In this document: in pieces, positions 39,173 through 40,877 of the stretch | How the letters are laid out: each line of letters starts with the position of its first letter | Position numbering within the stretch: position 1 is the first letter of the stretch | NCBI RefSeq assembly: GCF_016026235.1 | Contig: NZ_CP065613.1 | Length of the DNA stretch: 64,000 nucleotides | Strand: one strand, 5' to 3' | DNA from: Escherichia coli | Lineage (GTDB): Bacteria > Pseudomonadota > Gammaproteobacteria > Enterobacterales > Enterobacteriaceae | Position numbers and translations under genes: made by a program | The notes under the pieces: generated by a model | Databases searched by the model: none | What the model saw: the letters and a program-made list of their open reading frames with translations, nothing else | Told to the model about the DNA's origin: nothing

Positions 39173-39244
39173 GTGTGTGCAATATACGAAAAAAAAGCCC
39201 GTACTTTCGTACGGGCTCTTCTTTAAATATGGCGGTGAGGGGGG
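39173..39244. repeat. Direct repeat copy A (72 bp): serX terminator plus last ~14 nt of the tRNA 3' end, orphaned from the tRNA
   Basis: Identical except 1 nt to 40806-40877; contains perfect hairpin gcccgtac-tttc-gtacgggc. Confidence 0.7.
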
Positions 39245-39269
39245 TGCCCCTATTAAGTTGTCAAGCATG

Positions 39270-40466
39270 TTATGACCCCTGCGGGGTATAAAAAGTCCCG
39301 TCGCGCATCATGGCGAACAGAACGTCGCAGCGTCGTCTCGCCAGGGCGATAAGCGCCTGATTGTGTCGTTTTCCCTGACTCATTTTGCGGGTGTAGTAAG
39401 CCCTGGAGAGCGGATCCCTGAGCGCGGCGAAGGCCGACAGGAACAACGCCCGTTTGAGAGCTTTATTACCCCGTCGCGAGGGATGCTCACCGCGTATTGA
39501 CGAGCCGGATCGCCGAGTTACCGGCGCAAGGCCAGCATAAGCAGCGAGATGTGCGGCAGAGGCGAAGGCGCGGCAGGCGACCTCGGTGAGGAGTCTGGCT
39601 GCGGTCCTGACACCGACTCCGGGCATACTGGTCAGGACCGGGTAAAGAGGGTGAGCAAGAACTCGCTGTTCTACCTCAAGCGCCACCTCGTCTCTTTGCT
39701 TACGCAGCGTGATGAGCTGGAGTGCCAGACGTGGCAGTACTACGGCAGCGGCATTCGTGCCGGGAACGACGACGGTTTGTTCGGCCAGTGCCTGAGCTAT
39801 GTCTGCTGCAAGGCGTTTACCCAGACGAGGCGCAAGTTTGCAGAGCTGGGCTGCCAGCTTCTTCTCACCCAGCGAAGCGAGTTTTTCTGGTGAGGGATAT
39901 CGCTGGAGAAGATCGAGTACCGCCGGGTGCTCAAGTCTCGGACCGAGAACGCGCTCCAGTGCCGGATGTATCTGGGTCAGAAGGCCGCGGATACGGTTGC
40001 TGGCCTGCGTTGTCTGTGCGGCAAGATCATCATCGAAGCCGCAGAGCATGGAGAGTTCGGCGATTTGCTCGTCAGCCAGTTTCAGCGTGCGTAGCGCGTG
40101 AGGCAGGGTACGGGCAGCTTCGGCAATGATGGCAGCGTCACGAGCATCAGTTTTAGCTTCACCGGCGTGTAAGTCGGCTATGCGGCGCATGGCCAGTCCA
40201 GGGAGGTATCCGACAAGGACTCCTTCTGAGCGGGCAACGGCGACAGGTAACGCACCGATGGTAGCTGGCTGATCAACAACCAGCAGTATCTGACCATGTT
40301 GTTTCAGGTCAGATATTAGCGACCTGAGTTTGTTTTCGTCGTTGGGTAATGCTTTATCGAACAGGCGTTTACCTGAACGATTAATGGCAACAGCGTGATG
40401 CGTATCTTTACCGACATCAACGCCGATAAAGACCTGGACGGATTCGTAATCGCTGGATTCGGTCAT
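39270..40466 (-). CDS. IS110-family DEDD transposase / recombinase (398 aa)
   Basis: N-terminal VFIGVDVGKDTHHAV (RuvC-like DEDD domain) and C-terminal SMPGVGVRTAARLL...AAYAGLAPVTRRSGSS (Transposase_20-like) motifs. Confidence 0.85.
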   Translation of the reverse strand: MTESSDYESVQVFIGVDVGKDTHHAVAINRSGKRLFDKALPNDENKLRSLISDLKQHGQILLVVDQPATIGALPVAVARSEGVLVGYLPGLAMRRIADLHAGEAKTDARDAAIIAEAARTLPHALRTLKLADEQIAELSMLCGFDDDLAAQTTQASNRIRGLLTQIHPALERVLGPRLEHPAVLDLLQRYPSPEKLASLGEKKLAAQLCKLAPRLGKRLAADIAQALAEQTVVVPGTNAAAVVLPRLALQLITLRKQRDEVALEVEQRVLAHPLYPVLTSMPGVGVRTAARLLTEVACRAFASAAHLAAYAGLAPVTRRSGSSIRGEHPSRRGNKALKRALFLSAFAALRDPLSRAYYTRKMSQGKRHNQALIALARRRCDVLFAMMRDGTFYTPQGS

Positions 40467-40805
40467 TCTGTCTCCCTTGTATATGGGTTAACCAGATAAC
40501 CACGGGGAGCAGGTACCGGCATCCACGTTACAGACGGTCCCGGCAAAAGTGCCTGACCTGACCCCTATTAGCGGTTACCAGCGCCCCACCAGACCCGGTG
40601 ACATCACCCCCCGGATCATGGACGACTGGGGGCAGTAATCATGCCGGGTCTGGCTGGCTAACACCCCATTATAAGGGGTACGAATAAAGTAACGGGGATT
40701 GACTCGCTTCGCTCGCCCTGCGGGCAGCCCGCTCACTGCGTTCACGGTCTGTCCAACTGGCTGTCGCCAGTTGTCGAACCCCGGTCGGGGCTTCTCATCC
40801 CCCCA
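40467..40805 (-). ncRNA. Candidate bridge-RNA-encoding non-coding region 5' of the IS110-family transposase
   Basis: About 340 bp with no credible ORF, several GC-rich short inverted repeats (e.g. 40720-40732, 40779-40790); position matches where IS110-group elements encode their bridge RNA. Confidence 0.3.
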
Positions 40806-40877
40806 GTGTGTGCAATATACGAAAAAAAAGCCCGTACTTTCGTACGAGCTCTTCTTTAAATATGGCGGTGAGGGGGG
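40806..40877. repeat. Direct repeat copy B (72 bp): terminator plus 3' end continuous with the intact serX
   Basis: Matches 39173-39244; stem carries one g-to-a mismatch relative to copy A. Confidence 0.7.

Follow-up and report, generated by a model that had tools for sequence, protein, structure and literature searches.

ISEc20 in the tandem repeat array downstream of the tRNA-Ser gene serX of Escherichia coli

The tRNA-Ser gene serX of Escherichia coli is followed, in the window analysed here (a stretch of 64,000 nucleotides from contig NZ_CP065613.1 of assembly GCF_016026235.1), by an insertion sequence (IS) of the IS110 family that is enclosed between two direct copies of a segment made of the serX terminator hairpin and the tail of the tRNA. 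The element is an unremarkable copy of ISEc20, an insertion sequence that is already known. The direct repeats are neighbouring units of a host tandem array that is older than the ISEc20 insertion, and they were neither made nor carried by the IS. An earlier description of this stretch (hereafter the original prediction) had recognized the transposase gene and the repeats, and had proposed two origins for the duplicate, either a tRNA 3' end and terminator brought in by the element itself or a secondary recombination. This article presents the layout of the locus, the IS-free alleles of the array, the identity and target preference of the element, and a candidate guide RNA encoded in its left end.

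The serX locus

The intact serX gene lies on the minus strand, and ISEc20 is found downstream of its terminator in the same orientation (Table 1). Between serX and the neighbouring gene ycdU, the terminator is followed by a 108-bp module of the RtT repeat, then by the IS, and finally by the second copy of the terminator and tRNA tail. The two copies, A on the ycdU side and B on the tRNA side, are each 76 nt long and 97% identical. Their 72-nt core (39173-39244 and 40806-40877) differs at one position, exactly as the original prediction had described. Within each copy are a hairpin of the terminator type and the final 15 nt of the tRNA; copy B continues into the intact tRNA gene, whereas copy A has these 15 nt only. 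The observations that the element adjoins serX, that the tRNA is intact, and that copy B is continuous with it have likewise held up.

The region between the repeats is not a single element. The approximately 1,561 bp originally treated as one unit consists of a 1,453-bp IS and the 108-bp RtT module, which is host sequence outside the IS. The lower-coordinate boundary of the IS (39245) does coincide with the edge of a repeat, as had been stated, but the right-hand boundary in the window falls 108 bp short of copy B. Sequence annotated as "RtT sRNA" (small RNA) matches the module at 95-99% identity and occurs at 1-11 places per genome in 3,370 E. coli genomes. The Rfam model RF00391 matches the window at 40683-40818 with 32.3 bits, below its gathering score of 45, because the IS has cut away the RtT 3' tail: the module is parted from its tRNA-like tail, which now lies across the IS. 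The serX gene and its terminator are untouched by ISEc20, and one RtT unit is split.

Several other Rfam matches in this region are sub-threshold. The sRNA model sX4 (RF02223) scores 36 bits (gathering score 70) over 40793-40961 on the minus strand, spanning serX and its terminator, and the tRNA-like part of the sX4 model is the apparent cause of this match. The remaining sub-threshold matches between 38000 and 42000 at E <= 1 (MicC and the Thr and Leu leaders), like sX4, are accounted for by the tRNA and by terminator hairpins.

IS-free alleles of the serX array

The interval between ycdU and serX in E. coli K-12 MG1655 contains no IS and holds instead a tandem array in which a 181-bp unit is repeated 3.4 times (1462-2084 of the retrieved K-12 stretch, 99% matches). 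Each unit comprises the terminator hairpin, the last ~19 nt of tRNA-Ser, and the RtT module, and the intact K-12 units score 46.3 bits with RF00391, above the gathering score of 45. The IS was also deleted from the window in silico, and the resulting sequence was searched against complete E. coli genomes. At least 80% of this query is covered in 939 genomes, and the best matches (E. coli 55989, W, EC2641, and others) are full-length with 99.6-99.8% identity. Base-level alignment with 55989 and EC2641 reveals both 76-bp copies around one RtT module, with no IS. Even the copy-specific single-nucleotide polymorphism (SNP) is common to the window, 55989, and EC2641, with copy A reading GTACGGGCTC and copy B reading GTACGAGCTC. 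K-12, 55989, and EC2641 carry both copies without the IS, and therefore the repeats pre-date it. The original prediction had itself named an IS-free genome with the 72-bp duplication as evidence against its proposals, and these strains are such genomes. It had also named element ends out of register with the repeats, which is the case at the right-hand end. A comparison of the yieP site with K-12, intended to reveal the crossover or a target duplication, was confounded by strain differences, and the alpha-2-macroglobulin gene that another ISEc20 copy has hit is absent from the retrieved K-12 stretch; the search with the IS-deleted window was used instead.

The number of units is strain-variable, with 1.4 in the window and in the 939 complete genomes (55989, W, and others) versus 3.4 in K-12. 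It is conceivable in principle that ISEc20 entered a longer array, such as the 3.4-unit form of K-12, with the array shrinking afterwards to 1.4 units that enclose the IS. This variation in length, the spread of 1-11 RtT places per genome, and the report that RtT arrays in Salmonella are variable-number tandem repeats (PMC2658671) are compatible with such a history. Contraction is nevertheless unnecessary, as the 1.4-unit allele is common and, beyond the IS, the aligned stretch of the window differs from 55989 and EC2641 by just one substitution and one G in the insertion-site run; a later contraction is accordingly improbable. An origin of the duplicate after insertion, either by unequal crossing-over between nearby ISEc20 copies or by replication slippage, is more improbable still. 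Staggered recombination between IS copies can, as a general matter, produce duplicated host sequence on both sides of an IS. Yet the same two copies, with the same SNP and the same intervening RtT module, are present in hundreds of IS-free genomes, and the repeat belongs to an array with a period of 181 bp.

Identity and boundaries of the element

The assignment of the intact 398-aa minus-strand open reading frame (ORF) to the DEDD transposases of the IS110 family, made originally from motifs, is borne out by profile searches, and the protein is of the DEDD/Ser type. The N-terminal RuvC-like DEDD domain (Pfam DEDD_Tnp_IS110, PF01548) is matched over the full model by residues 14-168 (E = 1.4e-48), the C-terminal part matches Transposase_20 (PF02371; E = 3.7e-21), and the NCBIfam model NF033542, "IS110 family RNA-guided transposase", gives 239.1 bits for a cut-off of 140. 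The serine motif SGSS(I/V)RG aligns with that of the IS621 transposase (8WT6), reading RRSGSSIRG in the window and YESGSSVRG in IS621. Compared with the common ISEc20 protein (WP_001358663-type), 396 of the 398 residues are identical, and the exact protein is also encoded in multi-copy genomes where it has IpaH-type neighbours.

A megablast search of 39245-40805 against 5,426 complete E. coli genomes returns over a thousand near-identical copies annotated as "IS110-like element ISEc20 family transposase", and all matches to ISEc20 copies end at query position ~1453-1457. Annotated copies are 99.7-99.9% identical to the element, and one on a Shigella sonnei plasmid is 100.0% identical over the full 1,453 bp. 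The element thus shares its length, its ends, and its 398-aa transposase with ISEc20 (also annotated ISSfl4) and differs from the catalogued IS in nothing; only its insertion site, in the serX RtT array, is unmatched in these genomes. The identical S. sonnei copy, the IpaH-type neighbours of the exact protein, and the absence of this insertion from the complete E. coli genomes suggest that the window derives from a chromosome of the Shigella or enteroinvasive E. coli type. The GC content of the IS (57.5%, versus 49.7% for the window) agrees with the earlier description of a GC-rich element. ISEc20 is among the listed insertion sequences of S. sonnei 53G (PMC7373316), and a literature search found it in IS lists only.

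The exact ends were obtained from the junctions of 14 ISEc20 copies and of 10 more found through the exact protein, which together represent 23 distinct sites. These place the ends at 39245 (TGCCCCTATTAAG...) and 40697 (...AAAGTAACGGGG). The layout on the window plus strand is the same at every site, namely ...G-run/TGCCCCTATTAAG...AAAGTAACGGGG/unrelated flank (slashes mark junctions here and below). The right-hand boundary is ambiguous over 40694-40697, inside a G-run. The ends share CCCC/GGGG only, and long terminal inverted repeats are absent. A head-to-tail ISEc20 dimer is present in E. coli SMN197SH3 (NZ_CP024056.1; 1616-3365 of the retrieved stretch), where the two copies meet at AACGGGG/TGCCCC, the junction expected of a circle; this could be one copy inserted at the terminal C-run of the other, or a trapped dimer.

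The proposal that an IS110-type element brings along a tRNA 3' end with its terminator, and restores serX when its DEDD recombinase inserts it, drew on the exact abutment of repeat copy A on the IS end at 39245 and on the seeming anomaly of a 72-bp repeat beside an element whose family makes no long target duplications (PMC11208160), but it has practically no remaining likelihood, given that neither the 72-bp segment nor RtT occurs at any of the 23 other ISEc20 sites, that the right-hand end stops short of copy B, and that IS-free K-12, 55989, and EC2641 already have both copies. The locus resembles that of tRNA-targeting integrative elements (e.g., tyrosine-integrase islands and prophages) superficially, in having a direct repeat of the tRNA 3' end on both sides. 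Unlike in those systems, the repeat is neither created nor carried by the element, and there is no integrase and no att logic.

Table 1. Features of the serX locus and of ISEc20 in the window
Feature	Position	Strand	Basis or remarks
ISEc20 (IS110 family, IS110 group)	39245..40697	-	1,453 bp; identity to annotated copies, ends from 23 sites, empty-site alignment
Transposase / bridge recombinase ORF	39270..40466	-	PF01548 + PF02371, NF033542
Right-end non-coding region, 25 nt	39245..39269	-	Read from the sequence; holds TTGACA at 39259-39264
Left-end non-coding region, 231 nt, candidate bridge (guide) RNA	40467..40697	-	Fold and conservation
Candidate left donor guide UAAUAGGGG	40562..40570	-	Identical to element 3' end TAATAGGGG/CA
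Candidate right donor guide GUAACGUGG	40523..40531	-	8/9 complementary to element 5' end CCCCGTTAC; assigned by IS621 analogy
Candidate target-binding loop: CUGCCCCCAG (40626-40635) + CCGGGGGGUG (40605-40614)	40605..40635	-	Putative
serX, tRNA-Ser(GGA), intact	40863..40950	-	ARAGORN; Rfam tRNA 53.8 bits
76-bp segment copy B: serX terminator hairpin (40830-40849 + T-tract) + 3' 15 nt of serX	40802..40877	-	
RtT repeat module of the serX array, host sequence outside the IS	40698..40805	-	RtT sRNA annotation, Rfam RF00391
76-bp segment copy A, next array unit, ends in tRNA-like ...CCCCCCTCACCGCCA	39169..39244	-	Same SNP in IS-free 55989 and EC2641

Insertion site and target preference

The empty site in 55989 and EC2641 reads GGTGA-GGGGGGG-ATTGAC, and the occupied site in the window reads GGTGAGGGGGG/TGCCCC...AACGGGG/ATTGAC. 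The IS-free allele has 7 G in this run versus 6 G plus the GGGG of the IS in the window (39239-39244 and 40694-40697), and nothing is duplicated. The junction sequence of this insertion is ATATGGCGGTGAGGGGGGTGCCCCTATTAAG. An exact scan for the 36-nt junction in species-representative genomes gave no matches, a result that is uninformative, with Shigella folded into one E. coli representative.

The insertion follows the general habit of ISEc20. In the orientation of the transposase, the 3' end of the element (...GGGGCA) abuts a C-run at each of the 23 sites, usually of at least 6 C, and the 5' junction is CCCC at 21 of them. The other flank has a weak preference for G before the run only. Runs of at least 6 G or C are scarce, with 7 in the 64 kb of the window, of which 3 lie in the serX array and 1 lies inside the IS itself. 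The tRNA-Ser-derived sequence ATCCCCCCCTCACC provides a C7 run, and since C-runs of at least 6 are rare, it is a natural landing site for ISEc20.

The serX array and the RtT repeats

The serX array is a sister of the rtT repeats, the classic 178-bp repeats that follow tyrT/tyrV. The tyrT/tyrV array of K-12 contains 3.1 copies of a 178-bp unit (1205-1763 of the retrieved stretch), each with the final ~19 nt of tRNA-Tyr at its end. This unit and the serX unit can be aligned, with the tRNA-derived positions switched to the tRNA-Ser sequence. The serX array resembles the tyrT-tyrV rtT/RtT repeats (RF00391; rttR in K-12) in design, in unit length (181 versus 178 bp), and in variable copy number. 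In contrast to the tyrT-tyrV repeats, serX units carry tRNA-Ser sequence and the serX terminator hairpin. RtT has also been described as multi-copy clusters in Klebsiella (PMC4147364). The serX array is without annotation in the K-12 record, and a literature search found no paper tying serX to RtT. The host array, rather than the IS, is the more unusual object at this locus.

In both the serX and the tyrT arrays, and also at 40698-40877 of the window, the RtT unit has the appearance of the neighbouring tRNA's 3' third, interrupted in the T-loop by an insert of ~72 nt. The serX unit reads GGGGTTCGA-[insert]-AATCCCCCCCTCACCGCCA, and the tyrT unit reads AAGGTTCGA-[insert]-AATCCTTCCCCCACCACCA. Further copies of the T-stem strands upstream (GGGGGGAT / CCCCGACCGGGG versus GGAAGGAT / CTTCGACCAAGG) switch with the tRNA as well. 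This pattern hints that the origin of the RtT unit is tied to the neighbouring tRNA. That the arrays arose through copying or targeting of the T-arm of the neighbouring tRNA (e.g., by a miniature T-loop-targeting integrating element) is a speculative and rather unlikely extension of it.

A candidate bridge RNA in the left end

IS110 elements move through a circular intermediate and use a bridge RNA encoded in the long left end (LE); members of the IS110 group have a long LE and a short right end (RE) and make no long target duplications (PMC11208160). In the bridge RNA, the left target guide (LTG) and left donor guide (LDG) share the sense of the left target and donor (PMC11208160). The right target guide (RTG) and right donor guide (RDG) are instead the complement of the right-side sequence (PMC11208160).

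The 231-nt LE of ISEc20 folds into two stem-loop domains with a minimum free energy of -98.3 kcal/mol (z = -2.1). This two-domain fold is conserved in relatives from Ralstonia, Klebsiella, and Raoultella: the RNAalifold consensus of four sequences contains 61 pairs, 5 of them with compensatory changes. The 9-nt block UAAUAGGGG in domain 2, the candidate LDG, is the only match of at least 7 nt between the LE and the donor junction, and its core AUAGGGG is kept in the Ralstonia relative, which is 72% identical to ISEc20. The candidate RDG, GUAACGUGG, sits across the domain 2 loop from it and is conserved in all four relatives. In domain 1, CUGCCCCCAG and CCGGGGGGUG face each other with runs of C5 and G6. 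These putative target-loop blocks match the C-run, which is the sole conserved feature of the 23 target sites. All four guide blocks are kept in the Ralstonia relative, itself located in a C-run, and the Klebsiella and Raoultella relatives keep the blocks too. The assignment of guides in the ISEc20 LE, which for the RDG follows IS621 by analogy, is somewhat probable. The RE contains a perfect -35-like TTGACA on the minus strand, 15 nt from the IS 3' end and pointing outward across the junction, as would be expected of a circle-junction promoter. The Ralstonia relative (Ralstonia solanacearum pSEPPX05, CP021449.1; 273-1535 of the retrieved stretch) is annotated as "coxC, cytochrome oxidase subunit III", a label that likely reflects a mis-annotated transposase.

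The closest described system is IS621 and its bridge RNA (Durrant et al. 2024, PMC11208160; Hiraizumi et al. 2024, PMC11208158). Like IS621, ISEc20 has a recombinase with DEDD and Ser parts, a long LE (231 nt), a short RE (25 nt), and no target duplication. Its LE also has two domains, with candidate guides in one loop that match the element ends in the order LDG (same sense) and RDG (complement). The two proteins are distant, however, with a phmmer match in the C-terminal domain only (E = 1e-14) and lengths of 398 aa in ISEc20 versus 326 in IS621. In contrast to IS621, which uses a REP-type site of 11-14 nt with a CT core, the natural targets of ISEc20 are C-runs with little other consensus. 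On a more speculative reading, ISEc20 would be a naturally low-specificity bridge recombinase with homopolymer target guides.

Proposed course of events

The best explanation as a whole, and a highly probable one, is that ISEc20 inserted in the pre-existing serX tandem array, at a C-run to which an RNA from its LE would likely have guided it. E. coli and its relatives carry a variable-number tandem array downstream of serX with a unit of ~181 bp, and the ancestor of the window had the common 1.4-unit form, with two 76-bp segments around one RtT module. A single 1,453-bp ISEc20 then landed at the G7/C7 run where the tRNA-tail segment on the ycdU side meets the RtT module. The element is predicted to excise as a circle with the expected junction ...TAATAGGGGCA-CCCCGTTAC..., and its DEDD/Ser recombinase would be guided by RNA from the 231-nt left end. 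One RNA loop would pair with the joined element ends (TAATAGGGG / CCCCGTTAC), and the other, with its C5 and G6 runs, would pair with the target C-run. The identity of the element, its ends, the empty site, the preference for C-runs, and the conservation of the two-domain fold are demonstrated; which nucleotides guide, where the crossover falls, and that the RNA is made are inferred.

Several observations weigh against this explanation or parts of it. Insertion of the 1,453-bp element has lengthened the site by 1,452 bp, which leaves one G unaccounted for; the ancestral unit may have had 6 G, or slippage may have removed one. With a discrepancy of one G in the run, the crossover therefore cannot be placed within it. 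Searches with 300-bp queries for both junctions of this insertion found them in 0 of the 5,426 complete E. coli genomes. The guides were assigned from a single 9-nt identity, a single complementarity of 8/9, and homopolymer runs. No covariation between guides and ends is seen in the Ralstonia, Klebsiella, and Raoultella relatives, in which guides and ends are both conserved and the test is without power. The Rfam search of 38000-42000 at E <= 1 gave no family over the left end of the element. A simple sigma-70 scan across the RE-LE junction of the SMN197SH3 dimer found no acceptable -10 element at 16-18 nt and no full promoter.

Implications

The locus combines a known IS, known family behaviour, and a known kind of host tandem repeat. 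The 72-bp duplication that seems to surround an IS110 element is an artefact that arises when a single genome is read alone. Set against the IS-free allele, the locus is no exception to the absence of long duplications at IS110 elements, and no DEDD "tRNA-rebuilding integrase" is needed. Behind tRNA genes, the tRNA-tail direct repeats of RtT arrays mimic att sites and may mislead the calling of island and IS boundaries. The preference of ISEc20 for C/G-runs predicts its landing sites and aids the annotation of its many copies in Shigella and enteroinvasive E. coli (EIEC)-type genomes.

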